Source: Candidatus Mcinerneyibacteriota bacterium
Lineage (GTDB): Bacteria > Macinerneyibacteriota > Macinerneyibacteria > Macinerneyibacteriales > DSCS01
DNA: 64,000 bases
Assembly (NCBI GenBank): GCA_016937175.1
Contig: JAFGWL010000056.1
Coordinates: forward strand, 25,685-89,684
Direction of reading: 5' to 3'
Positions within the stretch are counted from its first letter, which is position 1. Every line of letters begins with the position of its first letter. Made by a program: the position numbers and the translations under genes. Below, piece after piece: positions 2,844 through 52,628 of the stretch. The notes under the pieces were generated by a model. It was given only the letters and a program-made list of their open reading frames with translations. It ran no database searches and was not told the DNA's origin.

Positions 2844-3902
2844 TTATCTGATCTTCATAGAAAAGATGCCGGAGGCGAGGATGAGGCGCCGTAATACCCT
2901 GTTATACATAAAGGGAAGCTTTCTGTTCTTAAGCCAGATATTAAACTTCAGTGCGGCTGTCTTTTTTCGATAAACTTTCTGAAAACAGGGAAAATTTGTA
3001 TTGATACTTTCAGCCAGCAAAAGACCGCTTTTGATCGCATAACTGATCCCTTCAGCTGAACTGGGGCTGATGAAGCCTGCCGCCTCACCTGTGAATGCGA
3101 CTTCACCCCTATGTGTCCTTATACTTTTCATGTCCCGGGGCCTGTTGATGAAAGCACTCTCTTTTTTAACAGGCTCTCCGGTAATCAGCCCTTCTCCTTT
3201 GAGCCGGTCTAACAGCCCCTCAAATTTCTGTCTGGCCTCTTCCCCGGGTGGAAGAGCACTCCCCACAATCAGATGACCGTTTTTCTGAATTATCCATGAA
3301 TAAAAATCAGTCACCGTGCGGTCAAATATCGAAGTATAAAAGGGGCTTTCCCGTTGAGTCATAAACCAGTATTGCAAGGCCAGATAAGAGGCCTTTCCGA
3401 AAGCGGGATCCGCCTGGCGCCTGACACGCGAAGCCGCTCCGTCAGCTCCCACCAGGATCTTCGTCCGGGCTTCCGAAATGACCCCCTTTTCACGGTACTT
3501 GATTACGAGCCCCTTTTCGTCTCTTTTGTAGGAGAGAAACAGAGTATTGAATTTTTTTTCTGCATGTTCGGGAAGAGACGAACAGAGCCAACGGTCGAAC
3601 TTTTCCCGGTCGATATTGATATAATAACGCTGATAATAGCGCTCCAGGCCGTGGTCTCTGTCAATGGTGCGTACGCTGAAGAGCTGAGGCCCTGTCAGAA
3701 CCTCGCCGGGGATACCGAGCCCAAGACGTCCCAGGATATTCTGGGCATCAGGTGCCAAAAGCCCGCCGCAGCACTTGTTCACCAGAGGAGGCCATTCATC
3801 CAGATTCCTTTTATCTATGAGCAGGACACGGTATTGCTTATCAAGGAAGCGAGCCAGAGAGGCCCCGGACGGCCCCGCACCGATTATGACCACATCATAC
3901 AC
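2844..3902 (-). CDS. FAD-dependent oxidoreductase (geranylgeranyl-reductase / halogenase-like Rossmann family)
   Basis: GTG start followed by VIIGAGPSGASLA (GxGxxG dinucleotide-binding motif). 352 aa. AAGGGGGA SD. Confidence 0.7.
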   Translation of the reverse strand: MYDVVIIGAGPSGASLARFLDKQYRVLLIDKRNLDEWPPLVNKCCGGLLAPDAQNILGRLGLGIPGEVLTGPQLFSVRTIDRDHGLERYYQRYYINIDREKFDRWLCSSLPEHAEKKFNTLFLSYKRDEKGLVIKYREKGVISEARTKILVGADGAASRVRRQADPAFGKASYLALQYWFMTQRESPFYTSIFDRTVTDFYSWIIQKNGHLIVGSALPPGEEARQKFEGLLDRLKGEGLITGEPVKKESAFINRPRDMKSIRTHRGEVAFTGEAAGFISPSSAEGISYAIKSGLLLAESINTNFPCFQKVYRKKTAALKFNIWLKNRKLPFMYNRVLRRLILASGIFSMKIR

Positions 3903-3980
3903 CCTATTCCCCCTTTACAACTCACTGGGAGCATTGTAGGGGAGATCCCGAAGGGTCTCAACCGATTTCTTCTTTTTTTT

Positions 3981-4178
3981 TCAGACAGTATCAGTTTTTC
4001 TCTGAAGATGATCTCCTGAAGCAGTATTCTGCCTCATATCCGGCCCCGCAAGAATCAGAAGCCATCCGAAAGGGCCCAGAAGAAAAGAAAAAAAAGCTCC
4101 TGCCCCGGCACGCCCTTTTCTATCACCTATGAGGGCCCCGATCAGGATAGTCACAACAGCGATAATATAATACTCCAT
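3981..4178 (-). CDS. Small membrane protein (65 aa, 2 predicted TM helices)
   Basis: GGAGAGGG SD. Two hydrophobic helices. Confidence 0.5.
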   Translation of the reverse strand: MEYYIIAVVTILIGALIGDRKGRAGAGAFFSFLLGPFGWLLILAGPDMRQNTASGDHLQRKTDTV

Positions 4179-4254
4179 TTCCCTCTCCGCTCAACTTTTC
4201 AAACGCTTTCAGATTATTCAAATTCTTTTTTCACCAGGGCAGGGAAGCCGATGG

Positions 4255-4950
4255 TCATGGGGTCGGCTCACCGGCCTCCTCTTGCCTTCCATGCATGGGA
4301 TGCATGGCTGTCAGGATCCAGGCTTTACAAAGGAGGTGAACAGCCTTTTCGATCCTTGATACAGGGCTCTTTGACTTTTCAAGAATGATCTTCAATTCTT
4401 TATCTTTGAAGGCCTGCGGGTGAAGTTCGCAGATCTTCCTCATCCTTTGTCCGGATCTGCCGGTATACGAGACTTCCACCATGTATCGCCCGGCAGACTG
4501 ATCAAGGGCGTAGAGAAGAGTCTCGGCGTCTTCAGGCCCTCGCAGAGGGAGGTCGACTGTTCTCTTTTCTGTGAGGGAGGACAGAGCAGCCTGGCTCACG
4601 ATCTCAATATCTTCCAGGATATATTGAAAGACCACTTTTACATCCACCAGTCTGTCCATTTCCGGCGGCTGCAGCTCCAAACGCACAAAAGCCCCTATTT
4701 TTCCGGTCTCTTCTTCCCGTGTGAAAAAGACCTTTTCTCCGCTTAGCTTCAGGTCCCCGGGAATGACCAGATTTTTTGGATTACGGTCATGATATTGTCC
4801 CCTGACATATGACCAGGCGTAGTTGAGGGCTGTGGCCCAGAGGAGAATTTCCACAATAAGGGAAGACCAACGATCAGCCCCGTAATAGATATTGACAATT
4901 ATCAATCCTGATAAAAGAGCCATCACTGTTATGACTTTAATTTTCTCCAT
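4255..4950 (-). CDS. Hypothetical membrane protein (2 N-terminal TM helices plus cytoplasmic domain)
   Basis: Internal start MEKIKVITVMALL preceded by AAGGGGGGG SD (C7 tract on plus 4948-4954). The track N-extension to 5067 lacks an SD. Confidence 0.55.
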   Translation of the reverse strand: MEKIKVITVMALLSGLIIVNIYYGADRWSSLIVEILLWATALNYAWSYVRGQYHDRNPKNLVIPGDLKLSGEKVFFTREEETGKIGAFVRLELQPPEMDRLVDVKVVFQYILEDIEIVSQAALSSLTEKRTVDLPLRGPEDAETLLYALDQSAGRYMVEVSYTGRSGQRMRKICELHPQAFKDKELKIILEKSKSPVSRIEKAVHLLCKAWILTAMHPMHGRQEEAGEPTP

Positions 4951-5450: not shown

Positions 5451-5477
5451 GAAAAAGGGAGAATATATTATTCTCTC
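5451..5477 (-). terminator. Rho-independent terminator overlapping the stop codon of the giant gene
   Basis: 9-bp stem gggagaata/tattctctc (one G-U pair), loop tat, followed on the minus strand by UUUUUCU. Confidence 0.5.
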
Positions 5478-8400
5478 TCCAATGGAATACGGCCGCTGAT
5501 AAGGAACGAATGATAGATTTTTTCAGCGATCATGGTTCCCAGAAGCTGGAAATAGGAGCTGTCAGAAGCTACCGAATAACGGTCGGAATCGATCCTTAGG
5601 TAGACGGAAGCTGTCGTCCTCTTGTTCAAATCCACTCTCCGTATCAGATCTCCTTTCTCTTCATCACCCGGGAGAGCCGGATCCGTGATCAGACGGCTGC
5701 TTTCTCCCTGCAATCCCAGACAATAAATATCTTCTGATACGTCCAAAACAATAAAAAATGAGCTGGCATGGAAGTAAGTGACCAGCAGGTCAAAGATCTG
5801 CCTGACCATGGCCTCCGGCCCGGTGATGGGTCGGATTTTTTGCGCCAGGTCAAAAACAGCATCGATCTTCTCACTTTCTCTCACAGGATCCCGGAGAGGT
5901 TTCGCTTCCTTCTCTTTTTCCCTGCGCTCAGGGACTCCCCGGATATAAACGGTTCTGTTTCTCCCGCTCTCTTTGGCATAGTAGAGGGCCTCATCTGCTT
6001 TGGCTACGAGCTCTTCCAGAGCCTTTCCGTCATCGGGGTAGAGGGCATAACCTATACTGCATGTCAATTTATAATTCTGGTTCAACACGGAATTTTCAGT
6101 GTTCTTCCGGACCCGGTCAATGATCTTTTCTCTGTCGGCATCTCGGGGTATGATCATGGAGACACAAAACTCTTCTCCTCCATACCGTCCCACAAAGTCA
6201 CTCATGCGGACAGTCCCCTTGACAATACGCCCCATCTCTTTCAGGACCGAGTCCCCTCGTGAATGGCCGTAGGTATCGTTGATATTCTTGAAATGGTCCA
6301 GGTCCAGAATGGCGATGAGAACCTGCTGTTCAGACTTATCGGCATAATCCAGCATATCCTGTGTAAGATTTATCCAATGCTCCCTCTTATAAAGGCCTGT
6401 GAGCCGGTCAAGAAGAGCTGTCCTCTTCAAATAATCATAGTATCCCGCTGCATTGATAAAGTCCCGGAAAGGGCCTAACCCTTCGGTGATTTCTTTGTCA
6501 GGATAGAGGAGAAGACGAGTCGTATCCAGGTAGAGACACCCTCTAAGAGCAAAGTAGTGAAAACTTGATTGCCTGTTTTCCCGTGTTTTGCTTTTTCCCC
6601 GCCCCAGTTTTTCAATATCCAGTACGGGAATGATCAGGATCCCCGTCAGGTTCCGTCCCTGCCTCTTCTCTTCCCGGTGATAGAAGATATCCCTATGGGC
6701 CTTTTCAAAAAGGATCTCATTCAGAAGGTCCCGCCTCATGGGAACCGGAACATGATACCGTCCTTCTTTTTCGATCACAAGTTTCTCTGTCCAGCCCGAA
6801 TAGAGGTCATATTCGAAAAAGCCCCCCCGTGTCATCCCTGTGATATCCATAAGGTCCACGAGGATCGACTTATAGAGCCCTGTCCCCTCATTGACCGGAG
6901 ATAGCTGGTAATCCTCCAGAGCCTTTCTCTTGCTCTCTGCAATCATCTCACGGGCGAGATCACGGTGGGCCTCTCTGAAGAGATCGGGCCGGTCAACCAC
7001 CGGGTCGATGCCATGCTTTTTCAGAAGGCTTGCATGAAAAGCCCATTCTTTGTTTTGTTCCATGAAGGAGGTTCTGTACTGTATGGGGACTGTATTAAGC
7101 CACTCTTTCATTTGGGTAAAGAGGTCCAGGAGGACATCATAGAAGAGAGCTGTCCCCTCTTCATGCTTCTCAACAAGAAGATGAAGTGTATAAAGCATCT
7201 GAGAAGATCTGTAAAAGGGTGCAGCATAAACCCTTTCCAGTGCCTCTTCACTTCCGAGAAAAGCTCTGAGGAGGTCGGAGCGGTTCTTCTCCTCTCTCTC
7301 CTCGATTTCAAAACCTTTTCTCTCAAGAGTATCCAGAAAGCGGACAGCCAGGTCTTTATCTCCCGAAAGCCAGGCCTTCTCCGCTCCATGAAGAAGGAGT
7401 GTGCTATAATGCTTTTTATCTTCTTCTGCAGAGTACCGGCGCAAAATAGCATCCATCTCCTTTTCCATGGCTTTCAGCCCCGCTTCCTCTGCCCGGGCTG
7501 TGAGAGAGACGACCAGGTATTCCACGCATTCTCGAAGAGAGGGACGGTCTTCAAAAAAGGCCCCTGCTTCTTTCAAAGCGGCCCGGGCCCGCTCATGGTC
7601 TCCCAGTTCAAACAGAAGGTCTGCCAGCAGGAAATTCATCTTAGCCCCCTCGCGGACCCCTTTTTCGTCTCCCAAATAATCAAATCCTTTGCTGATGACA
7701 TCATAGGCTTTGTCATAGTAATGGAGTGTCTTGTAGGCTTGGGCTAAATTCATTGTATTGATGGTAGCTGCATGAAAGAAATGGATCCGTTCTGCTGCCC
7801 TGACAGCACGGATCCAGGAAGAAATGGCCTCTTCAATTTCGCCCCGGTCGATGTTGACGATCCCTGTGTTGGTGGAAACGATGGCGATAAGCCTCTGATC
7901 GTCCAGGCGCTGGGCTATCTCCAGGGCTTTTTTGAAATATTCATGGGCACGGTCGACCTCTCTGGCCCTTCGGTAGGCGATGGCTCTTGCGTTATAAGCA
8001 TTGAACTCTGCATCTAAAGAGATGTGTTCCCGATTTTTTTCGACGATTGAAAGCATCTGCTGGGCTGTCTCTTCCATTTTTTTATTGTTCTGATTATCCA
8101 TATAACTTATCATAAGCTCATTAAGGAAGAGCGATTTCCGGTTTTCGTCAAGTCCGTCGATCATCTCCCTGAAGCCGCAGACCATCTCTTCGACTCTATC
8201 ATATTCACTTTTTGTGACATAAAAGACCAGAAGGTTGTAAAAAACAGTCCCCCATTCTTCCGGGTGATCTGCCGGCCCTTTCTCGATAAATCCCATGAGT
8301 TCCTTTATATCCTCTTTATCCCCGTTGGACAGGATGACAAGCCGATAACTCTTGTAAAGGGTCTTTAACAAAGGAGTATCCGCAAAAGCCTCCATCTGGG

Positions 8401-10243
8401 AGAGGACGACATCTTTGCCGATGAAACGCTGAAAATCATGCCGATATAATACCTCATAGAGTTTGAAGAGATTGACTCCCGTCAGGTTTTGAGCAGAATT
8501 ATGGATCTGGGAAAACAGGTTATAGAAAAAGCGGTGATGGACCGACTGTTCCCTGACACCCATCATCAGATAATGGCTCATGGCCTTGTGATAAGCCTCG
8601 GCGCCGAATCCCGTGTTCAGTGCCAGATAGACGAAGGTTTCAAGATAGGAAAGCTCCCGGAACCCGTTCTCTTCAAAATAATCCAGGACAAGACGGGCCA
8701 GAGCGGGGTCGACTTTTTTCTCCCCGGTCTCTATCAGGGAGGAGAGACGGAATACATAGAAGAGTTCATCCCGATAGGCCACATCCTGCTCCTCCAGAAC
8801 CGCCAGGGCTTTTTGCAGAGAGACGGGAGCCTTTTCAACAAAATCCTGAGGGATCTTTCCACCCATAGCCCGTCCCAGAGCCAGAGCCTCTTTCGTATCC
8901 TCCTCTGTTTTCCCCTTAAAAGCTGCGATACTGATTCCGGTGCAAAAACACCCCTGCGTCCGTGGAAAAGATCCCCGGGCTTCGATAAGCTTAAAACATT
9001 CCTTATCAGCTGCCTTACACAGGCTTTTCCTGACCAGGGAAGGCTCTCCCCCGCTCTGGTCCAGAAGCTCCTTAACGGCTTCTTGCATGTCATCAACGAA
9101 ATAATAGTAGTAATGAAGCACACGTGCGGTTTCTTTTTCATCCAGTTTCGCCATGGTCAAAGGGAACATTCCGGGAAGGGGCCTTCGGTTCCAGGCTACG
9201 ACACGGAGGTCTTTCGGTTGAAAACGCCTGGAAAGATAAGTCAAAAACCGCATATCTTCTTCAGACAGCTCCTCTCCTCTGCCCAGGCCTAAAAGGGCCG
9301 GGCCCGAGGCGACTTTATTTTCCAAAAAACGGATTGCTTTGGCACGCATCTCTTCAGGGGTCCTCGCCACAGACTCCCGGCCCTCTTCTTCAGACCGGCC
9401 CAGGTATTTTATGATCCCTTCTGCGAGGGAAGCCTTCTCCTCTTCCAGCCCGAAATACTCATACCCTTTAGCCTGGATCAGGGGGATAAGGCCCTGATAC
9501 CAGAGACGGGCATTTTCTTCAGAAGCATAATCATAAACGGTTGTGAGAGACTCCGTGGTTTCCAATAGGGAGATCTCTCTCTCTGACAGGATCAAGGCTC
9601 CCGGGAAAGGGGTCGAGCAGGCATGGCCCTGAATAAAGTCCCTCTGAAGGCTATCAGAGATCACTTCGCGATGAGGAAAATAGAGCCGGAGGTCTGGTAC
9701 ATCTTCGTCAGAGAGTTTGTATCCTGCTTCATTCATCAAACGGGTAAAGGCCATCAGGTCCGCTCGGCGGCCCATATCGATATCGACATAAAGCGGGCTC
9801 ATATCAAAAAAGACAGGGTTCCTTTTTGTATCCCTCAAGGCATTGCTTTCACGGAGATCCCCGTGGTAAGTCCCGTTAGCATGAAGAAAAGAGATGAGAG
9901 AAAAAAGGCTGTTGATCAACATCTCTTTGTTCTCCGGGTTCATTCGAAAAAGCCCCGGCATCTTATCAGCGATATAAAAAGAGCGGGAACTGTCTGTGTA
10001 ACGGCCGTCTATACTCGCCAGGGTGTGAAAAGAGCGGATAGGCCGCAGAAGTGGATGCCTGTAAAGAGAGGTAACCATATATTCTTTTGTCAGAAGGTCC
10101 TTTTGGAATTTTTCTTCAGAAACTGTTATTTTGAGGATAAGCTCTCTTTTTGGGAAAAAAAGGTCGCCTGCTTCATAGACGATAAAATTATTGTTTTTAT
10201 TAAGAAGTTTTTTAATCGTAAAGCGTCCGTTGACCAGTTTCAT
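5468..10243 (-). CDS. Giant multidomain signalling protein (1591 aa): degenerate protein-kinase-like N-terminus, possibly degenerate STAND/TPR core, GAF-like region, GGDEF diguanylate cyclase (GGEEF) and a C-terminal GAF-like extension
   Basis: Kinase-like motifs HGDLRESNAL (catalytic loop) and FFDMSP (in place of DFG). TPR-like helical repeats. LDLDHFKNINDTYGHSRGD...RYGGEEF is a GGDEF domain. GGAG SD. Confidence 0.9.
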   Translation of the reverse strand: MKLVNGRFTIKKLLNKNNNFIVYEAGDLFFPKRELILKITVSEEKFQKDLLTKEYMVTSLYRHPLLRPIRSFHTLASIDGRYTDSSRSFYIADKMPGLFRMNPENKEMLINSLFSLISFLHANGTYHGDLRESNALRDTKRNPVFFDMSPLYVDIDMGRRADLMAFTRLMNEAGYKLSDEDVPDLRLYFPHREVISDSLQRDFIQGHACSTPFPGALILSEREISLLETTESLTTVYDYASEENARLWYQGLIPLIQAKGYEYFGLEEEKASLAEGIIKYLGRSEEEGRESVARTPEEMRAKAIRFLENKVASGPALLGLGRGEELSEEDMRFLTYLSRRFQPKDLRVVAWNRRPLPGMFPLTMAKLDEKETARVLHYYYYFVDDMQEAVKELLDQSGGEPSLVRKSLCKAADKECFKLIEARGSFPRTQGCFCTGISIAAFKGKTEEDTKEALALGRAMGGKIPQDFVEKAPVSLQKALAVLEEQDVAYRDELFYVFRLSSLIETGEKKVDPALARLVLDYFEENGFRELSYLETFVYLALNTGFGAEAYHKAMSHYLMMGVREQSVHHRFFYNLFSQIHNSAQNLTGVNLFKLYEVLYRHDFQRFIGKDVVLSQMEAFADTPLLKTLYKSYRLVILSNGDKEDIKELMGFIEKGPADHPEEWGTVFYNLLVFYVTKSEYDRVEEMVCGFREMIDGLDENRKSLFLNELMISYMDNQNNKKMEETAQQMLSIVEKNREHISLDAEFNAYNARAIAYRRAREVDRAHEYFKKALEIAQRLDDQRLIAIVSTNTGIVNIDRGEIEEAISSWIRAVRAAERIHFFHAATINTMNLAQAYKTLHYYDKAYDVISKGFDYLGDEKGVREGAKMNFLLADLLFELGDHERARAALKEAGAFFEDRPSLRECVEYLVVSLTARAEEAGLKAMEKEMDAILRRYSAEEDKKHYSTLLLHGAEKAWLSGDKDLAVRFLDTLERKGFEIEEREEKNRSDLLRAFLGSEEALERVYAAPFYRSSQMLYTLHLLVEKHEEGTALFYDVLLDLFTQMKEWLNTVPIQYRTSFMEQNKEWAFHASLLKKHGIDPVVDRPDLFREAHRDLAREMIAESKRKALEDYQLSPVNEGTGLYKSILVDLMDITGMTRGGFFEYDLYSGWTEKLVIEKEGRYHVPVPMRRDLLNEILFEKAHRDIFYHREEKRQGRNLTGILIIPVLDIEKLGRGKSKTRENRQSSFHYFALRGCLYLDTTRLLLYPDKEITEGLGPFRDFINAAGYYDYLKRTALLDRLTGLYKREHWINLTQDMLDYADKSEQQVLIAILDLDHFKNINDTYGHSRGDSVLKEMGRIVKGTVRMSDFVGRYGGEEFCVSMIIPRDADREKIIDRVRKNTENSVLNQNYKLTCSIGYALYPDDGKALEELVAKADEALYYAKESGRNRTVYIRGVPERREKEKEAKPLRDPVRESEKIDAVFDLAQKIRPITGPEAMVRQIFDLLVTYFHASSFFIVLDVSEDIYCLGLQGESSRLITDPALPGDEEKGDLIRRVDLNKRTTASVYLRIDSDRYSVASDSSYFQLLGTMIAEKIYHSFLISGRIPLERE

Positions 10244-10261: not shown

Positions 10262-11245
10262 TTATTGCTCCGTTTTTTTGGACTCGTCCGGCCGTCCCAT
10301 GGGCTCCATGAGACGCCAGGCGTTTCGATAAGCGATTTTTTCACACTCCCCTATGGTAAATCCCGCTTTTCTAAAGGCCTCAAACAACCTGGGTATCCCT
10401 GAATAATCCTCCAATTCCAGAGGACAGAATATTCCGTCGAAATCACTTCCCAAAGCGCAGGCCTCTATTCCCCCGCATCTTTTTAGATGTCTCATATGAG
10501 CGACAATTCCTTCAATGGTGCCGGTTTCTCCCGTGCCGAGAAAAGCAGAAGAAAAATTGACCCCGATGACTCCCCCACGTCCGGCTACATCACGGATCAT
10601 CTCATCTGTGAGATTCCTTGGATGCGGGGTTATGGCCCTGCAGCAGGAGTGGCTGGCCAGGAAAGGCCCTTCCATGATCGCTGCCACGTCTTTGAACCCC
10701 CTGTCTGACAGGTGAGAGACATCCACGAGGATCCCCTTTTGTTCCATGGCTTTAACAGCATCTTTTCCCAAGTCCGTAAGCCCCTTTTCCGTGTGGACCC
10801 AATCTTTATTGGGATACCCGAGCGAATTGGGGAAATTCCAGGTAAGTGTGATCAGCCGCACGCCTTTGCTGAAGAGAAGGTCGATGTCTTCCGGGGAAGT
10901 TATGATCCCTCCCTCTTCCAGCGTCAGTATGGCACTGATCTTATTTGAAGCTTTGTTTTTTTCAACATCCTCCAGAACGCGTGCCGATTCCAGTCCCGGA
11001 AGGGCTTCAATTTCTTCATAAAAACGGCTGATCATGGAAAAGGCATAATCCCTGTATTCTTCGATGGCCTTCGCCGGATCGCCCATATAGATGAAAGCAG
11101 CAAAGAACTGAGCTAAAGCTCCCCCTTTTCTCAGCTTCTCCATATCAATATGATACCCGTTTTTTTTGAAATCTCCTCCGTAAGTAAAGGTGCGCCACAG
11201 AGTATCGCAATGGAGGTCGATGACCGGAAAGGGAGCCTGCATCAC
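10262..11245 (-). CDS. Membrane dipeptidase, peptidase family M19 (renal-dipeptidase-like)
   Basis: PVIDLHCDTL and GSDFDG motifs of M19. Start MQAPFPV lies 2 nt after the upstream stop. The track N-extension overlaps the upstream gene. Confidence 0.8.
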   Translation of the reverse strand: MMQAPFPVIDLHCDTLWRTFTYGGDFKKNGYHIDMEKLRKGGALAQFFAAFIYMGDPAKAIEEYRDYAFSMISRFYEEIEALPGLESARVLEDVEKNKASNKISAILTLEEGGIITSPEDIDLLFSKGVRLITLTWNFPNSLGYPNKDWVHTEKGLTDLGKDAVKAMEQKGILVDVSHLSDRGFKDVAAIMEGPFLASHSCCRAITPHPRNLTDEMIRDVAGRGGVIGVNFSSAFLGTGETGTIEGIVAHMRHLKRCGGIEACALGSDFDGIFCPLELEDYSGIPRLFEAFRKAGFTIGECEKIAYRNAWRLMEPMGRPDESKKTEQ

Positions 11246-11246
11246 T

Positions 11247-12125
11247 CTAGAGTCCGTTCCACCCTGCCAGCCGAGACCAGAGCCACCAGGCAGCATATGC
11301 CTTGAGATTTCCGTTCAGCGCCTGGGTATGGGCCGGATAACAGAGGTACCAATCTGTCCCCGAAGTATGAGCATCCTGCCATTGGATGGCCCAATTGGCA
11401 TCGCGGATCTGATCCCCGTCTGAATCGTAATCACAATTATCATTGGCCAGCAAGGACAGATATTCCTCCCCGTCGGGATCATAACTCTCGATGTCGGCAA
11501 AATCGTAGAGGATCTTCTCATACTGCCTGCAGTAGGAGCGGATCTGTTCATTCCTCTGATGCAGGTTCCCGGCCAGGCCCGTTCCGTCCAGATGTCCGGT
11601 CATATAGACAAAAGCAACCCCGGGATAATCGATCTCCAGCTGATTCATAAGATTCAGATAGGTCAGGATATCCTCTTCCGAGGCATCAGAGACCTGTCCG
11701 CACCAGGACCATATCACCACATTACATTCAGGATGAGTGTCCAGATAGTCCCTGGTCGATTGGGCCCAGGAGACCCGGTCAGGGTTCCCCAGGTCGCTTG
11801 CTCCGCTGAAAGGGGTGTCCTGAAGATCCAAAGCTCCTCCGCTCCCGCCTTCATTCCAGGTATAGAGCCCCTCCCCCCCCATAAAGGCATCCAGGGCGTT
11901 CATCCCGGTAATGATCTGGCTTCCATGGGAAGTATGGCCGTAAGCGATATGGAGGTTCGTTTTAGCCGCCTCTATGGCCGATTCAGGGATCGCGTTGATG
12001 TCAGTACAAAGATGATCCACAATAAACCCGTCGCTTAAGACAGGGTCCAGGATCTTCGACTCCGTTTTGGCACATCCCCACAGAAAAATCAAAAGAATGA
12101 TAAGGAAAAAGAGCATTTTTCTCAT
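11247..12125 (-). CDS. Uncharacterised lipoprotein (possible hydrolase). Conserved blocks GHTSHG, VIWSWCGQ and YMTGHLDG
   Basis: Signal peptide with lipobox LWGC. GGAGGAGG SD. 292 aa. Confidence 0.65.
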   Translation of the reverse strand: MRKMLFFLIILLIFLWGCAKTESKILDPVLSDGFIVDHLCTDINAIPESAIEAAKTNLHIAYGHTSHGSQIITGMNALDAFMGGEGLYTWNEGGSGGALDLQDTPFSGASDLGNPDRVSWAQSTRDYLDTHPECNVVIWSWCGQVSDASEEDILTYLNLMNQLEIDYPGVAFVYMTGHLDGTGLAGNLHQRNEQIRSYCRQYEKILYDFADIESYDPDGEEYLSLLANDNCDYDSDGDQIRDANWAIQWQDAHTSGTDWYLCYPAHTQALNGNLKAYAAWWLWSRLAGWNGL

Positions 12126-12141
12126 ATGACCTCCTCCGTCT

Positions 12142-15100
12142 TCAAGTATCCTCTTCTTTTTGAATGGTATGAAAGGATGCTAAAAAGACCTTTTCACTGA
12201 TAATATTCCCCAGCATCGTAAAAAAACGTTCATCCTGCTGAAAAGAATAGCGGTCCGATCCCATCTCCAGATAGACCGAAACACTGTAATGTTCATGGAT
12301 GGAATAGGTATTCAGCCTGGCTCCGCCTAACCCCCTGTCAGACTCCATCTCTCTTTTGCCCACCCCCTGGGCAGAGGCTTTTTTTTCGTAATAAATAAAG
12401 TGACTGTTCCCGCCCATGAGAATTCCCAGACGTGTAGCTTGGAAAAGGGCTACGAGGATATCATAAATATCCGAAACGACCTCTTCAACAGGCATAAAGG
12501 GGTCGATCTTCTCTTCAATGCCCAGCAAGGCATCCAGCTTCTCTTTCTCCCGGACAGGGTCATCGATAGCCTTTTTATTGTTTTTCTTTTCTCCCGCTGC
12601 ACTCGCCGGCATGGTCTCATAGGCGATGGTCACATTTCGTCCGCTCGATTTTGCATAATAGAGAGCTTCATCGGCCTGTCCCAGCAGAGAGTCTAAAATC
12701 TCTGCATCCCGGGGATAGAGGGCATACCCTATGCTGACGGTCAGGTTGAACTTTTTGTTCAGGGCCGAACTCTGTACATTCGCCCGGATCCGGTCCGTGA
12801 TACCGGAATAGGAAGCTTTCGGGGGAACCATCATGGCCAGGACGATCTCCTCGCCTCCATAGCGTCCGACGATATCTGAGGCTCTGACTGTCTCTTTGAT
12901 AATAGCACTCACTTCTTTTAAAACAGCATCTCCCCTGGCATGGCCGTATCTGTCGTTAATATTCTTAAAATGGTCGATATCAAGGATGGCTATGATCACC
13001 TGCTGGTCATTGTTCAAAGCATATTCCATGAGTTTTTTGGTCAGATTGATCCAGTGTTCCCTTTTATAAAGGCCCGTAAGCTTGTCCATGAGAGCCGTCT
13101 GTTTCAGGTAATCGTAATAGCCTGCGGCATTGATGTAATCTCTCAGGGGGCCCAGCCCCTCTGTGACCTCCGCGTCAGGCACCAGCAGCATCCTGTCGCT
13201 GTCCAGATAGATACATCCCCTCAAGGCAAAGTAGTGGTAGCTTGACTGGCGCTTATTGTCTCCCCTGTATTTATTGTGTCCCAGTTTTTCTATGTCAAGC
13301 ACCGGGATCACCATGACAGCACTGGCAGAAGAACCTTTTCTGGCCGGTTCACGGCTGAAATAGACATCCCGATGGGATGATTCAAAAAGGACCTCGTTGA
13401 TCGCCTCTTTATAGACAGGAAGAGGTGGATGATATCCGGTCCCCAGGTCCAGAACCACTTTATGCTGCCACCCTTCATACATGTCATACTCATAATAGGC
13501 TGCCCGGGTCATGCCGGTGATCCGGATCAGGTCTTTCAGAATGGACCTGTAGAGATTCTCACCTTCACTCATGGGAGACAACCTGTAGTTTTTCAATGCC
13601 CGTTTTTTCTCTTCCCGGATAAAACGCCGTGCTGTCTGCTCATATTCCTGACGAAATGAGTCCAGATGAAATTTTTCGGACTCATACCCCTGTTCCCGGA
13701 GGAGCTTACTGTGGAAGCGCCATTCAGGATTCTTCTTTTTAAAGGAATCCCTGTATTGATAAGGGATATGCGCCAGCCAGCGGCTCATGATAGAAAGAAG
13801 CTGGGCACAATATTCCAGATGCAGTGCATTCTTCGTCTTCTCTTTTCGGATAAGAGCGTTAAGGACAAACATGGACCTGGAATACCCTGTAAACTCCCCC
13901 ATCCCCTCTTCATCAAACTCCCTCTTCTCTCCGCTGAGAAAGAGGATGACATCCATCATCTTCCTGTCCCCCGGCTCCAGGGTCTCCAGGGAGCCGGAGT
14001 CGATTTTTTTTACATAGTCAGCTGCATCCTGATAGTGGCCTGCACATAGGAGCTGAAGGGCAGCGGTCAGAAGGACGATACTGTAATAGGCCTGGTCTTC
14101 AGCGGAAGAAAAACGTGAAAAGAGGCCTTCGATAAACTCGTCCATGGACTTCTTCCCTTCTGCCTGGAAGAGAAGAGCGATTCTGACGTCGAAATACTCA
14201 TAACTTACTTTTAAAGCGCTCCGTTCTTCATAAAAGGGGGCCGCTTCCTTCAAATGGGCTTTAGCCTGTTGATAATCCCCCAGTTCCATAAGCATATCCG
14301 CATAGAGAAGATGAAGCTTTGAATTTTCCCGGAGTGTAGGAGCTTCAGCCAGGTAAAGCTCTATTTTTTTAAAGGTCGACAGGGCTTGCTCATACTGATG
14401 GAGAAGTTTGTAGACTAAAGATAGGTTGATCGAGTTTGTAACCATTGAAAAATAGATCTTTGCCTGCTCAGCAGCTTTCACTGCGCTTGTCCATGAGGCC
14501 GTACAAGCTTCATAATCTCCTGAATAGTAGTGTATGACACCGATATTAGTTGCCACAATAGCTTCGTAACGATAGTTCTCCAGGATCCGTGCGATCTCAA
14601 GTGCTTTGTTATAGTGGACCAAAGCCTCCGGAAGACGTCCCTGTCTGCGGAGAACGATGGCCAGATTGTTATGGCTGCTGAAGTGGGCATCCAGCCCTGT
14701 TTTCTCTCCTTTTTTTCCAACGATCTCAATCATGGACCGGGCTGTCTCCTGCATCTTTTCAAGATCCATCTTATCCATATAACAGGAAAACATCTCATTC
14801 ATGACCATGACCCGGTTTTCATCGTTCAACGATTCGATGGGCTTTTTATATTTCTCCATGAGCTGTTCCATCTCTTCATAGCGGCCGAGGAATTTCAACT
14901 TCAGCAGGACATGCCGGAGAACGAGGGCCCAGGTATCCTTCTCCTTCCGGTCATAAGCATCCAGAAAAGGGTACATCGCCCTTACATCATCCAGAGTCGC
15001 TTTATCATCCAGAGTCAGCTTAAAAGCCTTTGTGACCTGCTTCTCTCGTTCCGTCCGCCCCTCTTTCTCCAATTTTTCCAACAGGAGGGAATTGTCATAG

Positions 15101-16881
15101 ACATGATTGTGATCCAGCTTCAATAAGTTCAGATAGAGGTCAAAGGAGTTTCCCCCTTTCATCTCCCCGATATTTTTTTCAAAGGCCCGGAAGAGGCGAA
15201 AAAAGAGGACACGGTTCAGAGAACGCTCCCTTTCGCTCAACCGGTTGTAAAAAGAGAGGATCTTTTCGTAAGCTTCTTCCCCCTGCCCGGTGTTTAGCGA
15301 ATAAAAGACATAGCTTTCAAGATAAGCCTTCTCCTGAAATGCAAGTCTTTCCAGCTCATCATACAAAGGACGTTGATCCGTCGTCGTAAATTTTTGTCGG
15401 ACAAGATCGCCGGGGATCCTGTTCAACCGCAGGATGAAGAAAAGTTTGTCCCGGTAAAAAGCTTTCTCTTCCATGAGGTAGATAAGGGCCTTTTTTTCTT
15501 CAGAAGAGAAGAAATCGAAAAAAGAGGAAGGTATCTTTCCTCCCATGGATCGGGCCAGAACCACCACATCCTCTACGGCTTTTCGCTCAGAGCCGGGAAT
15601 CTCCTTTAAGGAAATGGAAAAATCGAAACTCTCTTTCCCCTTATCCAGCGAGACAGTCCCGTTTTTGAATATAAGAGACTCTCCTGCAGCCATTTGACGG
15701 ATAAGCCTAAGAAGGAGGGATGGCTCTCCTTCCGACTGACGCCACAGGGTCTTCGCGGCCTCTTCATCTTCGTTCAGATAAGGAATATAATACCGGAGGA
15801 CGCGACAGGATTCTTCTTCTGTCAGAAGCGGGCAGGAGAGGTTTTCAAACTCTTCAGCAGGCTCGCGCTGCCAGATGAAAAAAGAGATACGATTGTTTTC
15901 AAAATGGTTCGCAATCTTTCTGAGCAGGCTAAGGTCATCACGGCTCATGGATTCTGCCGCTCCCAGCCCAATGGCCACAGGCCCATACCCGGCTGCATCT
16001 TCAAGAAAGCTCAGGAGCCCCTCTTCTCCGTCTGCGCCATTGACTGCCGCTGTAAGCCTCTGAGAAAGGGGTTCCGGGCCTTCTGCCCTGTAAAGCTCGA
16101 TCCCCTCAGCCTGGATAAGAGACAAGACCGCCTCATACCAGATACGGGCATTATCAGCACCACGATAATCATAGATCACCGTCACCGGCTGTATAAAAGT
16201 GAGCCCGTCCGGGGTTCTTGACTGTATAAGTCGTTCAGCTGGGAAGGGAGTGGCCCTGATATGCTCCAGTGCCACAGCTTTAACGTAATCATCCGAGATA
16301 AGAGAACGGAAACCGGGCAGCGAGAAGAGCTCCGTTGCATCCTCTTCCCTGAAGGGAAACCCGAGAGACCTCAGTAACTCAGCAACGGCTTTCATATCAT
16401 TTTTCTGTCCCAGGGCATTATTCACATAGAGAGGGCTCATATCAAAAAAAAGAGGAAGCCCCTGGCCGTCAGCCAGGATATTGCTTTCCCTGAGATCTCC
16501 GTGATAAGCTTCATTTCTGTGTAGAAACCCTAAAAAGACATAAAGGGCACTGATTAGGGTTCCGGCCTTCTGCTTGTCGGCCTGGAAAAGCGAGGGATAT
16601 TTGTCGGCTATATAAAAGCAACGGGTTGTATCAGTGAATCGACCGTCGATGGTCCGCAAAGGGTGAAAGGAATCCAGGGGCCGAAGCAGCGGATGTCGGT
16701 TCAACAGGCCGGCAAGATATTCCTTTCTCAGAAGATCAGTCTGAAAACGTTCTTCCGAAGCCGTGACCTTCAATATCTTCTCTTCGCCCGGAAAGAGGCG
16801 GTCGACCGCTTCATAGACGATGAAATTGCTGTTCTCATTCAAAAGGGTTTTGATTTCAAAGCGGCCGTTGAATAGTTTCAT
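12142..16881 (-). CDS. Giant multidomain signalling protein, paralog of 5468..10243 (1579 aa): kinase-like N-terminus, TPR/STAND-like core, GAF-like region, GGDEF domain with variant motif GGEEI
   Basis: N-terminus MKLFNGRFEIKTLLNENSNFIVYEA is near-identical to its paralog. HGDLRESNIL and FFDMSP motifs. RYGGEEIVLAMM in the GGDEF domain. Confidence 0.9.
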   Translation of the reverse strand: MKLFNGRFEIKTLLNENSNFIVYEAVDRLFPGEEKILKVTASEERFQTDLLRKEYLAGLLNRHPLLRPLDSFHPLRTIDGRFTDTTRCFYIADKYPSLFQADKQKAGTLISALYVFLGFLHRNEAYHGDLRESNILADGQGLPLFFDMSPLYVNNALGQKNDMKAVAELLRSLGFPFREEDATELFSLPGFRSLISDDYVKAVALEHIRATPFPAERLIQSRTPDGLTFIQPVTVIYDYRGADNARIWYEAVLSLIQAEGIELYRAEGPEPLSQRLTAAVNGADGEEGLLSFLEDAAGYGPVAIGLGAAESMSRDDLSLLRKIANHFENNRISFFIWQREPAEEFENLSCPLLTEEESCRVLRYYIPYLNEDEEAAKTLWRQSEGEPSLLLRLIRQMAAGESLIFKNGTVSLDKGKESFDFSISLKEIPGSERKAVEDVVVLARSMGGKIPSSFFDFFSSEEKKALIYLMEEKAFYRDKLFFILRLNRIPGDLVRQKFTTTDQRPLYDELERLAFQEKAYLESYVFYSLNTGQGEEAYEKILSFYNRLSERERSLNRVLFFRLFRAFEKNIGEMKGGNSFDLYLNLLKLDHNHVYDNSLLLEKLEKEGRTEREKQVTKAFKLTLDDKATLDDVRAMYPFLDAYDRKEKDTWALVLRHVLLKLKFLGRYEEMEQLMEKYKKPIESLNDENRVMVMNEMFSCYMDKMDLEKMQETARSMIEIVGKKGEKTGLDAHFSSHNNLAIVLRRQGRLPEALVHYNKALEIARILENYRYEAIVATNIGVIHYYSGDYEACTASWTSAVKAAEQAKIYFSMVTNSINLSLVYKLLHQYEQALSTFKKIELYLAEAPTLRENSKLHLLYADMLMELGDYQQAKAHLKEAAPFYEERSALKVSYEYFDVRIALLFQAEGKKSMDEFIEGLFSRFSSAEDQAYYSIVLLTAALQLLCAGHYQDAADYVKKIDSGSLETLEPGDRKMMDVILFLSGEKREFDEEGMGEFTGYSRSMFVLNALIRKEKTKNALHLEYCAQLLSIMSRWLAHIPYQYRDSFKKKNPEWRFHSKLLREQGYESEKFHLDSFRQEYEQTARRFIREEKKRALKNYRLSPMSEGENLYRSILKDLIRITGMTRAAYYEYDMYEGWQHKVVLDLGTGYHPPLPVYKEAINEVLFESSHRDVYFSREPARKGSSASAVMVIPVLDIEKLGHNKYRGDNKRQSSYHYFALRGCIYLDSDRMLLVPDAEVTEGLGPLRDYINAAGYYDYLKQTALMDKLTGLYKREHWINLTKKLMEYALNNDQQVIIAILDIDHFKNINDRYGHARGDAVLKEVSAIIKETVRASDIVGRYGGEEIVLAMMVPPKASYSGITDRIRANVQSSALNKKFNLTVSIGYALYPRDAEILDSLLGQADEALYYAKSSGRNVTIAYETMPASAAGEKKNNKKAIDDPVREKEKLDALLGIEEKIDPFMPVEEVVSDIYDILVALFQATRLGILMGGNSHFIYYEKKASAQGVGKREMESDRGLGGARLNTYSIHEHYSVSVYLEMGSDRYSFQQDERFFTMLGNIISEKVFLASFHTIQKEEDT

Positions 16882-16956: not shown

Positions 16957-16985
16957 TTGCCCATCACCATTCTCCCTGATATAAT
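16957..16985 (+). promoter_or_regulatory. Sigma70 promoter TTGCCC-17nt-TGaTATAAT (extended -10) for the zinc-ribbon gene. The predicted TSS coincides with the ATG, so the mRNA would be leaderless
   Basis: TTGCCC at 16957-16962; TATAAT at 16980-16985 with TG at 16977-16978; ATG at 16993; no SD. Confidence 0.5.
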
Positions 16986-16992
16986 TTCATTA

Positions 16993-17760
16993 ATGAAACG
17001 GGAATCATCTTTGTATCACTGTCCGGAATGCAGTGAATTCGTAACAATGTCCCAATCCTACTGTCCTGCTTGCGGGACACGCCTTTCCCCTTCCCGGCTC
17101 AGGCCAGCCGCAGAAGAGGATAAGGTGACCCGGAAACACAGACGCTCTTTTGTCCCCCTCATCCTCGTTTTCATCCTCCTTATCACCGCTGTCATTTTCC
17201 TCAGCCCTCTCAACCGGGCTCTTCGCCCTCTTCTTCCCGGAATGCCGGTTTTTCAGGAGCCCCCCGGGACCTTCGAATGGGACGGAGAATACCTTACGTC
17301 ACATGCGGGGAATTTTTATATCCGTCTTCCTTCTCCCCCGTCTTTTGAGATCTCACAGATCAAAGCTGAAGGGGCTTCTTTCGACGAATATATTTTTACA
17401 GCACAGGATGAAGAAAGCCAGTGTCGTATTCTTTTTACTCTTCTTGATGACAGGACTTGCGGGACTCTTGATTTCAGCCAGCCCCTGAAAGCTTTGGAAA
17501 CCCTCAGCAGGATGAACATCATCGAGGGGAACCCCGTATCGGCATCTCCCCTGCTCTTTTATGATTTCTGGCCGGGAATCGAATTTCAGGTAGAGGTCAT
17601 TCCCCGGCAGGGGTCTGCATTACTGGGAGTGGGACGAGCTTTTTTAAAAGAAAAGACCCTCTATATCATGGAAGTTGTCAGGCCCTCAGCCCCGGGGCTT
17701 CCCCAAAAGAGCTCTTCCATCCCCTGGGTCGACTCCTTCGGGTTGATCGATATCAACTGA
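16993..17760 (+). CDS. Zinc-ribbon (CPEC...CPAC) membrane-anchored protein with extracytoplasmic domain, 255 aa
   Basis: Two CxxC pairs at the N-terminus, then a TM helix (LILVFILLITAVIFL). The track start at 16957 is a TTG inside the -35 element and is rejected. Confidence 0.65.
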   Translation: MKRESSLYHCPECSEFVTMSQSYCPACGTRLSPSRLRPAAEEDKVTRKHRRSFVPLILVFILLITAVIFLSPLNRALRPLLPGMPVFQEPPGTFEWDGEYLTSHAGNFYIRLPSPPSFEISQIKAEGASFDEYIFTAQDEESQCRILFTLLDDRTCGTLDFSQPLKALETLSRMNIIEGNPVSASPLLFYDFWPGIEFQVEVIPRQGSALLGVGRAFLKEKTLYIMEVVRPSAPGLPQKSSSIPWVDSFGLIDIN

Positions 17761-17762
17761 TT

Positions 17763-19247
17763 CTATCTCTGATTATAATATCGGTACAGCTTGATGTCTG
17801 TGATCACCTTGCCCAGGCCCACAAAAATAACAAATATCTCAAGACGTCCCAGGAACATCCCGGCAATCTCAGTCCAAAGAATATAAGGCGGGGCTGTTGC
17901 TGAAGTCACTCCCACAGAAAGACCGACTGTCCCGAGAGAAGAGGCAAACTCAAAAAATGAATCTGTGAATGAGTATCCGGCTGTCATAAGGATAAGAGTT
18001 CCCGCGAAAAGAATCAGAAGATAGGTAAAGACAAAGGCAAAGATCTTGTGCACCATCTCTGTTGTGATCCATTGCATACCGCCGCCGTAATAGACTCCTT
18101 TACTTTGGATGGTATTCTTCGGTAAAAGCTGGCGTCTGATATGAAACCATAGTTCCTTAAGGATGACGATGACACGGATCTGCTTGACCCCCCCTGATGT
18201 CGAATAGGCTCCTCCTCCTGTGATCATTAAAATGGAGATAACTACAAGGGCGATCTCGCTGAATTTGGAATAGGGATGGATATTGAATCCGGTCGTTGTC
18301 AATCCCGATATAGACTCAAAAACAGCTGCTTTTATGCGATAAGCTAGCGGAGCTGCTTCACCTGAAGAAACAGAAAAAAAAAGGAACAGTGAACTTGCCA
18401 GGGCCATGACAGCGAAAAGCCTGACTTCAGTGTTCTTAAAAAGTTTTTTAATATTTCCGTGGAAGACCTCATAGGCTGTAATAAAATTCAGATTCCCCAC
18501 AAACATAAGAATGAGAATGATAAAATAAACAGGCCATGAACTCCAATAACCGATACTTTGAGGGTGCGTTGCAAAACCTCCGGTCGAGATCGCTGCAAAT
18601 GTATGATTGACAGCATCAAAAAAAGACATTCCGGCCCACTTTAAAAGAAGAACCCCCGTAATCGCATAAGCACCATAGATGCGCATGACGACTTTTGCCG
18701 AGCTGACCACGTTGGGGATCATTTTATCAGAGCGTCCCTCTGCTTCCATGATGGAACTACCGAAGCCGGCCTGTATTCCGAACACAGAAAGCATGATGAT
18801 GGCCAGCCCTGCTCCTCCGGCGAATTGCATAATACTTCTCCATAACAGAAAGGGAGATGTAATGGAGGTCACATCAAGCACAGAAAGGCCCGTCGTCGTC
18901 CATCCGCTCATGGATTCGAAAAAAGCAAGATGAAAGGGGATGTTCAGCCCGATCCAGAAAGGAAACGATGAGACTACAATGATCCAGAGCCAACCGAAAA
19001 CAGTCAGGACAGCACCGTAATAGAGATTCATCTCTTCATTTTTATAACGAATAAAGAGAATTCGTAGAACAAGCCCGGTGGCAAGGAGAACGAGAGAGGG
19101 AAACCAAAAAGAAAAGATCTCCCTGTTTCCTCCCCCCGAAGTCAAAAGAGCCATAAGGAGAGACGGAAGAAAGAGAAAACTTCCGATAATAGACATATAG
19201 CCTGTATAGTAGAGGATTCCAGCATATTTTCTCATTATCTCATTCAT
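17763..19247 (-). CDS. trkH: Trk/Ktr-type potassium uptake membrane subunit (TrkH/KtrB family)
   Basis: MSGWTTTGLSVLD and SGLTTTGFNI pore-loop motifs. Start MNEIM lies 4 nt after the upstream stop. Confidence 0.85.
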   Translation of the reverse strand: MNEIMRKYAGILYYTGYMSIIGSFLFLPSLLMALLTSGGGNREIFSFWFPSLVLLATGLVLRILFIRYKNEEMNLYYGAVLTVFGWLWIIVVSSFPFWIGLNIPFHLAFFESMSGWTTTGLSVLDVTSITSPFLLWRSIMQFAGGAGLAIIMLSVFGIQAGFGSSIMEAEGRSDKMIPNVVSSAKVVMRIYGAYAITGVLLLKWAGMSFFDAVNHTFAAISTGGFATHPQSIGYWSSWPVYFIILILMFVGNLNFITAYEVFHGNIKKLFKNTEVRLFAVMALASSLFLFFSVSSGEAAPLAYRIKAAVFESISGLTTTGFNIHPYSKFSEIALVVISILMITGGGAYSTSGGVKQIRVIVILKELWFHIRRQLLPKNTIQSKGVYYGGGMQWITTEMVHKIFAFVFTYLLILFAGTLILMTAGYSFTDSFFEFASSLGTVGLSVGVTSATAPPYILWTEIAGMFLGRLEIFVIFVGLGKVITDIKLYRYYNQR

Positions 19248-19251
19248 GTTG

Positions 19252-19908
19252 TCAGTCCCCTTCGATGATTTTTGCAATTTTTCCGATATTTTCAGGGTCA
19301 GAGATGACAAGGATCTTCTGCCCCGACCTCAGGGGAGTCTCTCCCCCGGGAATAGTGATCCCGTTCTCATCAAAGATGACACTGACCAGGGACATTTTGG
19401 GGAAATGGGCATCTTTGATAGCGACCCCGTTGACGGGCGAATCCTCGCTGATCTCGTATTGTGTCATAACTACTTTTCCTTCTGCGAAACTCATGAGATA
19501 AGAAAACCCTTCAAAGATGGTATTCTGACTGATCAGGTCGGCGATCATCTTTGTATTGGACAATCCTTTGATCCCGAAATCCCTAAAGACCTCTTCAAGC
19601 TCAAAATTGTTCACAAGAGCCAGGACATGAGGGACTTTGAAGATGGTCCTGGCTACTTGTCCAATAATGAAATTATCCTGATCCTTTTCCCGTAAAGTAA
19701 TCAGAACATCACAAAAATCAGTTTCCGCTTCTTTCAGGCTTTTCAGGCCCGTTCCGCTTCCCAGGATAACCCTGGCTTTTAATTCCTTCGACAAAAATTC
19801 GCATTCGCTTGGTTCACTGTTCAGAATTGTCAACTGATGCCCTTTTGAAAGTAGCATCTTACCTAGAAAAAATATAATACGTCCTGTGCCGATGATGGTT
19901 ATTTTCAC
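19252..19908 (-). CDS. trkA: TrkA/KtrA-like RCK protein (TrkA-N Rossmann plus TrkA-C)
   Basis: GTG start with GGGAGGA SD. VKITIIGTGRIIFFLG is Rossmann-type. The GTG overlaps the upstream TGA (GTGA). Confidence 0.75.
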   Translation of the reverse strand: MKITIIGTGRIIFFLGKMLLSKGHQLTILNSEPSECEFLSKELKARVILGSGTGLKSLKEAETDFCDVLITLREKDQDNFIIGQVARTIFKVPHVLALVNNFELEEVFRDFGIKGLSNTKMIADLISQNTIFEGFSYLMSFAEGKVVMTQYEISEDSPVNGVAIKDAHFPKMSLVSVIFDENGITIPGGETPLRSGQKILVISDPENIGKIAKIIEGD

Positions 19909-20330
19909 ATATCCTCCCTGAACATCCCCGTGATAAAGAGGTCTGACACCGTGGACACTGTGCTGAGGACTTCTATCCCAAAGTGATGGTAGAGCTCCTC
20001 CCATTTGGGATCGAAGACATGGGCAATGACCCTGGGGACTTCATAATATTTCCTCGCCATCTGGGCCACCATAAGATTGGCATTGTCATCATCACTCGTA
20101 CAAAGGAGATAATCGGCATCCTTTAATTTGGCTTGCTTCAGGATATTTGGATCAACTCCATCACCCAGGATCGTGAAGCCTCCGAAATTCTCATCCAATC
20201 TGGAGAAGGACTTCTTGTCTGTATCAATGACAGTGACACTGTGTCCGAGTCGGCTCAATTTATTAGCCAGATAGGATCCGATCTTCCCCGAACCTATGAT
20301 GACAATATACTTGATGTTTTTCATTATCAT
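19905..20330 (-). CDS. trkA: TrkA-N domain protein (NAD-binding RCK N-domain only)
   Basis: IVIIGSGKIGSYLANKL Rossmann motif. 141 aa. The ATG overlaps the stop of the response regulator (ATGA). Confidence 0.8.
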   Translation of the reverse strand: MIMKNIKYIVIIGSGKIGSYLANKLSRLGHSVTVIDTDKKSFSRLDENFGGFTILGDGVDPNILKQAKLKDADYLLCTSDDDNANLMVAQMARKYYEVPRVIAHVFDPKWEELYHHFGIEVLSTVSTVSDLFITGMFREDM

Positions 20331-52555: not shown

Positions 52556-52628
52556 TGTGCCCGAAAGGAGTCGAACCTTCAGCCTACAGATCCGGAGTCT
52601 GTCGCTCTATCCATTGAGCTACGGGCAC
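52556..52628 (-). tRNA. tRNA-Arg (anticodon CCG)
   Basis: Hand-folded cloverleaf: acceptor GUGCCCG/CGGGCAC, D-stem GCUC/GAGC, anticodon stem ACAGA/UCUGU with loop CUCCGGA, T-stem GAAGG/CCUUU with loop UUCGACU. No encoded CCA. Confidence 0.85.

Follow-up and report, generated by a model that had tools for sequence, protein, structure and literature searches.

Trimmed Hanks-type kinase domains that keep their catalytic residues open two paralogous GGDEF proteins of a Candidatus Mcinerneyibacteriota bacterium

Introduction

Two long genes in a 64,000-nucleotide stretch of the Candidatus Mcinerneyibacteriota contig JAFGWL010000056.1 (the whole of which is called the window here, and from whose first letter coordinates are counted) raise the question of what a kinase-like fold does when some of its best-known elements are gone and it stands at the head of a putative diguanylate cyclase. 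The genes are paralogs, with products that are 40% identical over the full length: A (5468–10243) encodes 1591 amino acids and B (12142–16881) encodes 1579, both on the minus strand, as are all features within them. Searches of Pfam and NCBIfam with the whole proteins return only TPR repeats, at approximately residues 735–995, and a C-terminal GGDEF domain; the first ~700 residues of both proteins are left unannotated by these standard libraries. A preliminary description of this DNA had recognised kinase motifs in the N-termini, within intervals that encode residues 1–201 of A and 1–200 of B, and regarded the domains as catalytically degenerate, that is, as a pseudokinase or an atypical kinase. 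A literature search that combined pseudokinases with diguanylate cyclases returned nothing on this family of proteins, and an exact-sequence look-up with protein A returned no record. Here we ask what kind of domain this is, which of its parts have been kept or lost, and what it might contribute to a cyclase.

Results

Each paralog opens with a genuine but trimmed protein-kinase domain of the Hanks (eukaryotic-like) type. It spans residues 1–221 in both proteins (9581–10243 in A and 16219–16881 in B), and in A is made up of a catalytic core (residues 1–175) followed by three short helices. The two copies are collinear without gaps, carry the same motifs, and are 49% identical over the first 264 residues. 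Single sequences give only faint matches: the two paralogs reach 11.4 and 12.6 bits with Pfam Pkinase (PF00069; gathering cutoff 31.7), A scores 15.1 bits against RIO1 (PF01163; cutoff 22) over residues 95–149 only, and the Protein Data Bank (PDB) returns weak matches, the best being CIPK24 (E 0.004), with RNase L also among them. All of these single-sequence matches are protein kinases, and HGDLRESN is placed on HRDLKPEN.

A word-indexed search with the first 269 residues found a single match, a 98%-identical fragment. The family was reached by running HMMER exhaustively against 1.84 billion cluster representatives, and by a genome scan. The HMMER search yielded ~16 clusters of ~1,600-residue proteins sharing the architecture (E 1e-131 to 4e-7); the next matches are ordinary Hanks kinases. 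Members are known only from metagenomes and metagenome-assembled genomes (MAGs), are labelled 'diguanylate cyclase', 'GGDEF domain-containing protein' or 'hypothetical protein', and come from bins named 'Bacillota/Firmicutes bacterium'. We aligned 18 sequences over the N-terminal ~230 residues (21–76% identity to A), and scanned 15 full-length members for motifs; the counts given below refer to these two sets.

The family profile matches solved Hanks kinases at the level of 1e-16 (StkP, E 1.8e-16; S. aureus PknB, E 6.7e-16), and, taken singly, 12 of the 18 members match Pfam Pkinase, the best at E 1.4e-18. The motifs on which the kinase-like assignment was originally based, namely HGDLRESN(A/I)L, ILK(I/V)T, FFDMSP and a turn free of glycine, are present in both paralogs as described, and alignment to the solved kinases identifies the first three as the catalytic loop, the beta3 lysine and the DFG equivalent, all in register and none of them outside the catalytic elements. 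The domain has the bilobal protein-kinase fold, and both sequence and structure place it nearest to the Hanks Ser/Thr kinases rather than to APH, CAK or SelO. It retains the N-lobe and, from the C-lobe, the catalytic centre formed by alphaE, the catalytic loop, the Mg loop and alphaF. Membership of the RIO family was considered and rejected, the RIO1 score of A falling below the cutoff and only 4 of the 18 members matching at E<=0.01.

As judged from the alignment, the residues for ATP/Mg binding and phosphoryl transfer are all kept, under strong purifying selection, and vary little or not at all even though identity within the family falls to 21–29%. Nine columns are invariant in the 18 sequences (D27, K38, E54, D79, H127, G128, D129, N134 and D162) and five more are nearly so, D147 among them; the chance that all five catalytic positions would land among these 14 conserved columns is 3.9e-7. 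K38, the equivalent of the VAIK lysine, lies in the beta3 strand LILKI of A (10127–10141) and KILKV of B (16765–16779), aligns on the lysine of VAVK, and is found in every sequence. So is E54, the equivalent of PKA E91, within the alphaC segment TKEYM of A (10076–10090) and a modelled helix at residues 45–61, and the K38/E54 pair is in register with the beta3 Lys–alphaC Glu pair of canonical kinases. The catalytic loop, HGDLRESNAL in A (9836–9865) and HGDLRESNIL in B (16474–16503), aligns on HRDLKPQN, with H127, G128, D129 and N134 present in 18/18. The Mg loop reads FFDMSP in both proteins (9794–9811 in A and 16432–16449 in B) and D-[MIL]-S-P across the family, its D147 (17/18) being the equivalent of the DFG aspartate. 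Finally D162, again present throughout, sits in the alphaF-like segment RADLM of A (9752–9766), where it aligns on the aspartate of the Hanks sDlyslG motif and corresponds to PKA D220, the alphaF residue that anchors the catalytic loop. The Arg of HRD is replaced by Gly, making this a non-RD domain, as fits one with no activation loop to phosphorylate.

These observations bear directly on the supposed degeneracy of the domain. The replacement of DFG by DMS had been read as a loss, and it is true that the Phe has changed to another hydrophobic residue (M, I or L) and the Gly to Ser, but the metal-binding Asp is retained. By sequence, a kinase domain counts as a pseudokinase once any one of three residues, VAIK Lys, HRD Asp and DFG Asp, has been lost (PMC12599244). 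All three are present in A, in B and in 17/18 family sequences, and by this definition A and B are therefore not pseudokinases. The domain is indeed atypical in having no glycine-rich loop, but the retention of K38, E54, D129, N134, D147 and D162 argues against its being catalytically degenerate.

The elements that have gone are equally consistent across the family. At the position of the glycine-rich loop, A has the turn NKNNNFIVY (10175–10201), aligned on GRGGMADVY of StkP and lying between beta1 (residues 8–16) and beta2 (20–27) of a predicted model; as the preliminary description had held, this turn contains no glycine, and nor does its counterpart in B, NENSNFIVY. The second Gly of GxGxxG is missing in 17/18, the exception being a fragment of 190 amino acids (P0019). 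In its place is a conserved polar motif, x-E-[STN]-x-N-[SF]-h-x-Y, with N19 in 15/18, a pattern which indicates that the loop was replaced rather than left to decay. The second loss had gone unnoticed. Set against seven canonical Hanks kinases, the family lacks 29–30 columns from D-M-S-P to the alphaF helix; in the model no more than 7 residues separate D147 from the alphaF-like helix, and the profile alignments to PDB structures always stop at around position 150. The activation segment is thus entirely deleted, leaving no activation loop, P+1 loop or APE motif, and alphaG is apparently missing as well.

We compared constraint along the protein by amino acid identity and non-synonymous divergence (dN), rather than by dN/dS, because synonymous divergence (dS) is near or beyond saturation (proportion of synonymous differences 0.62–0.88). 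Between A and its counterpart in a related MAG (L001), the kinase-like domain is 81% identical (dN 0.12), the GGDEF domain 84% (dN 0.085), the NOD-like module 65% (dN 0.26) and the helical/TPR region 67% (dN 0.23); between A and B the corresponding identities are 57%, 63%, 33% and 31%. The kinase-like domain is among the three most constrained parts of the protein.

The module that follows the kinase-like domain has also lost a hallmark, and this too had escaped attention. It covers residues 233–503 of A (8735–9547) and the interval 15412–16185 in B. Its fold is that of the P-loop NTPases (AAA+/STAND), and helical and winged-helix domains come after it. The kinase and NOD regions of the family align to those of a canonical relative, P0031, a Pkinase-AAA_16-TPR-GAF-Sigma54 protein whose Walker A sequence GPQGVGKT falls on YDYASEENAR in A; the motif [AG]xxxxGK[ST] is absent throughout all 15 full-length members. 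At the position of Walker B (hhhhD[DE]) the sequence is LLGLGRGE in A and AIGLGAAE in B, the acidic residues being gone in the clade of the window proteins, and some distant members retain IIDD or IIPD. With no Walker A, the STAND switch has lost its nucleotide-binding loop, whereas the kinase core keeps its nucleotide-handling residues. The NOD-like module, which no library annotates, looks like a 'pseudo-NTPase'.

The remainder of each protein comprises a sensor-like middle and the cyclase. The TPR region of A, which is of the MalT-like helical type, lies at 7262–8005 (Pfam TPR_2, TPR_12 and TPR_MalT) and that of B at 14215–14679 (TPR_1, TPR_2 and TPR_12). In A the stretch before the GGDEF domain (6449–7003, residues ~1081–1265) may be GAF-like: hhalign matches it weakly to the P0031 GAF domain (probability 19%, E 0.0012). 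The GGDEF domain of A (5954–6418; Pfam GGDEF 1.1e-37, TIGR00254 1.5e-44) has an RMSD I-site and a GGEEF motif, and that of B (12634–13095; Pfam GGDEF 7.3e-39) has RASD and GGEEI. The RxxD I-site is present in 14/15 full-length members, and both cyclase domains look competent by their motifs. The final ~150 residues of A after the GGDEF domain (5468–5935) match nothing; they and the GAF-like region are both conserved family-wide. The GGEEI variant is found in B, in its closest relatives (P0003 and the B protein of a second MAG, L002) and in two more distant clusters (P0004 and P0005), and the A clade retains GGEEF.

Between B and A lie a gene for a 292-residue lipoprotein without family assignment and a gene for an M19 dipeptidase, in the order B, lipoprotein, dipeptidase, A (10262–16881, minus strand). 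The four genes are separated by gaps of 16–18 nucleotides or overlap slightly, and because of this tight packing they probably form a single operon. The same order recurs in L001 (1373–12797) and L002 (1374–12599), and partly in L003, a locus from JGI metagenome 3300010349. The GGEEF/GGEEI split and the conserved adjacency of the genes raise the possibility that A and B form hetero-oligomers. L003 belongs to a 98%-identical strain in which (3001–4618) a 1-bp deletion in a run of C at about codon 253 splits the call of gene A into a 254-residue product (P0001) and a downstream open reading frame; rather than a genuine truncation, this probably reflects an error of the assembly or in the homopolymer.

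Upstream of B, and likewise conserved, is a divergently oriented gene for a Zn-ribbon membrane protein (16957–17760). Immediately downstream of that gene are TrkH and two TrkA-type genes for potassium uptake (17763–20330, minus strand), the two TrkA-like reading frames overlapping by ~100 nucleotides as mechanically called, and after these a HAMP-PAS histidine kinase (20995–22854). The genes adjoining A and B give no hint of a partner or substrate for the kinase. An Rfam scan of the window found one tRNA only (52556–52628, minus strand) and no cyclic di-GMP (c-di-GMP) riboswitch.

Discussion

What, then, might such a domain do? We put at roughly 0.5 the probability that it is an ATP-binding and ATP-turning-over switch, acting by hydrolysis or autophosphorylation, which gates oligomerisation of the NOD-TPR region and hence dimerisation of the GGDEF domain. 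Under this model, the trimmed domain would still bind ATP-Mg and would most likely turn ATP over, either by hydrolysis or by autophosphorylation in cis or trans, in the manner of RIO-type trimmed kinases, which offer the best precedent, but would not phosphorylate independent protein substrates. Its nucleotide cycle would stand in for the dead NOD as the switch of conformation or oligomerisation, coupling signals received by the TPR and GAF-like regions to GGDEF dimerisation and thereby to cyclase activity. The missing substrate-docking elements make a conventional protein kinase unlikely, and the invariance of every catalytic residue makes an inert domain unlikely. A fuller and distinctly more speculative version of this proposal, which we think unlikely to hold in all its parts, is that the trimmed kinase took over the switch role of a STAND module whose P-loop had died, as a RIO-like ATPase or autophosphorylating domain derived independently from Hanks kinases, and that it controls NOD-TPR assembly and c-di-GMP synthesis in co-transcribed and possibly hetero-oligomeric A and B.

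Several observations weigh against ATP turnover. One full-length member alone, P0016 (1624 residues), has Asn in place of the DFG aspartate (LTNLRC), together with Cys at the position equivalent to K168 (HGDICPEN). Since it keeps the whole architecture despite these changes, catalysis would seem to be dispensable in at least one lineage, and P0016 may be a true pseudokinase derivative inside the family. The K168-equivalent position is in any case variable (R, K, S, C or N), and the family has a bulky I, L, F or V where the Ala of VAIK, a catalytic-spine residue that touches adenine, would be. This substitution and the absence of GxGxxG could weaken or block ATP binding. Invariance is not by itself proof of turnover, because some inactive nucleotide-binding kinase domains also keep their catalytic residues. 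The genes adjoining A and B encode neither a PP2C phosphatase nor an FHA partner, and the resemblance to RIO kinases is only an analogy of structure and function.

The most serious alternative, in essence the one favoured by the preliminary description, is that the domain is a functional pseudokinase in the broad sense: a kinase fold that perhaps binds nucleotide but transfers no phosphate, and that serves as an allosteric, dimerisation or scaffold module to position the GGDEF domain. We regard this as credible, if some way short of probable. Precedents for such a non-catalytic module are RNase L, JAK JH2 and the kinase-homology domain of guanylyl cyclases, and RNase L is itself among the weak single-sequence matches. 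The lack of a glycine-rich loop, of the activation/P+1/APE segment and of alphaG, and hence of a canonical site for a protein substrate, would be expected of such a domain, and the bulky residues in place of the VAIK Ala and the toleration of D147N in P0016 point the same way. Among the related kinases linked to CP1/COG3899, ~40% are classed as pseudokinases, and EssB/YukC of Firmicutes exemplifies a kinase-fold scaffold, of ~200 amino acids, in which the glycine-rich loop has degraded and the activation loop is attenuated (PMC12599244). Against this, the presence of the Lys and both Asp residues fails the sequence definition, and scaffolds of the EssB type have lost all three motifs where A and B have lost none. 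Moreover D129, the catalytic base, and N134 are not needed for the fold alone and yet are found in 18/18 sequences over deep divergence, and the constraint on the kinase-like domain matches that on the catalytic GGDEF domain.

An improbable alternative is that the trimmed fold performs some other chemistry or acts on a non-protein substrate, for example by phosphorylating a small molecule, as APH and choline kinases do, or by AMPylation or glutamylation, as in SelO and SidJ. Other activities of kinase folds are on record (PMC12599244), the combination of HGDLxxxN with no activation loop is also typical of small kinases of the APH, Kdo and RIO types, and there are sub-threshold or low-count Pfam matches to Kdo (2/18), APH (1/18) and ABC1 (1/18). 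The nearest relatives are nonetheless Hanks Ser/Thr kinases and not APH, CAK or SelO, the C-lobe is reduced rather than elaborated and lacks an extra substrate-binding insertion like that of APH and choline kinases, and no metabolic gene context points to a small-molecule substrate. That the motifs are coincidental and the N-terminus no kinase fold at all, as the scores of the window proteins below the Pkinase threshold and the lone near-identical homolog from the word-indexed search might suggest, is rejected by the profile, Pkinase and structure matches and merits next to no credence.

The switch model can be set beside several known systems. In RNase L and IRE1, the nucleotide state of a kinase-fold module controls dimerisation and output. 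Like these proteins and the receptor guanylyl cyclases, A and B have a kinase-fold module upstream of a catalytic output, although nothing beyond the shared fold links them in evolution. The GGDEF domain is itself a homologue of the class III cyclase domains, and a kinase-like domain is also part of eukaryotic guanylyl cyclases; this kinase-homology domain is without catalytic residues (PMC1262709), whereas A and B keep them.

In overall architecture the closest comparison is with the CP1 class of bacterial Ser/Thr kinases (bSTKs), Hanks kinases fused to COG3899 (an AAA_16 STAND ATPase plus TPR) with GAF, FhlA or PAS outputs, of which ~40% are pseudokinases (PMC12599244); fusions of a kinase with MalT-like proteins, such as PknK of M. 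tuberculosis, have also been described (PMC1262709). A and B share with this class the succession of N-terminal Hanks kinase, NOD, TPR, GAF-like region and output, but differ in having no glycine-rich loop, activation segment or Walker A, in their GGDEF output, and in falling below the Pfam thresholds for Pkinase and AAA_16. A giant Firmicute protein of 1826 residues from Clostridium thermocellum, described as 'Kinase + 6 TPR + GGDEF' (Krupa & Srinivasan 2005; PMC1262709), has the same order of N-terminal Ser/Thr kinase, TPR and C-terminal GGDEF, and, compared by description only, differs in having a recognisable kinase domain. The pseudokinase EssB/YukC of Firmicute type VIIb secretion resembles A and B in having a kinase fold of ~200 residues whose glycine-rich loop is degraded and whose activation loop is much reduced, and its kinase-fold domain serves dimerisation and scaffolding (PMC12599244). 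The RIO kinases Rio1 and Rio2 are the nearest in build, though not in membership, having a trimmed fold without an activation loop in which the catalytic residues are retained; they are stand-alone ribosome-biogenesis factors, unlike the N-terminal signalling modules of A and B. The trimming looks convergent with that of RIO, because the closest sequence relatives of the domain are Hanks kinases. The novelty lies in finding together, in a small family known only from MAGs and not described before, a RIO-like trimmed core that has all its catalytic residues, a NOD with no P-loop and a GGDEF output; the architectural class was already known.

Fusions of Hanks-type kinases and pseudokinases to STAND ATPases are abundant in bacteria and almost unstudied, and the family of A and B is a natural minimal case of them, in which the kinase core is reduced to nucleotide handling, the STAND switch is disabled, and the c-di-GMP output is easily measured. 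It lends itself to asking how pseudokinases are to be told from atypical kinases, and what stands in for a STAND switch that has died. For annotation, the family shows that proteins labelled only 'diguanylate cyclase' can carry 500 N-terminal residues that Pfam and NCBIfam do not recognise. Should the domain prove not to turn ATP over, the rule that assigns pseudokinases from the Lys and two Asp residues would misclassify some of them. If it does, bacteria would have arrived independently at a kinase fold that works as an ATPase switch of the RIO type, and the family would offer a tractable setting in which to study a kinase core without its substrate-binding lobe.

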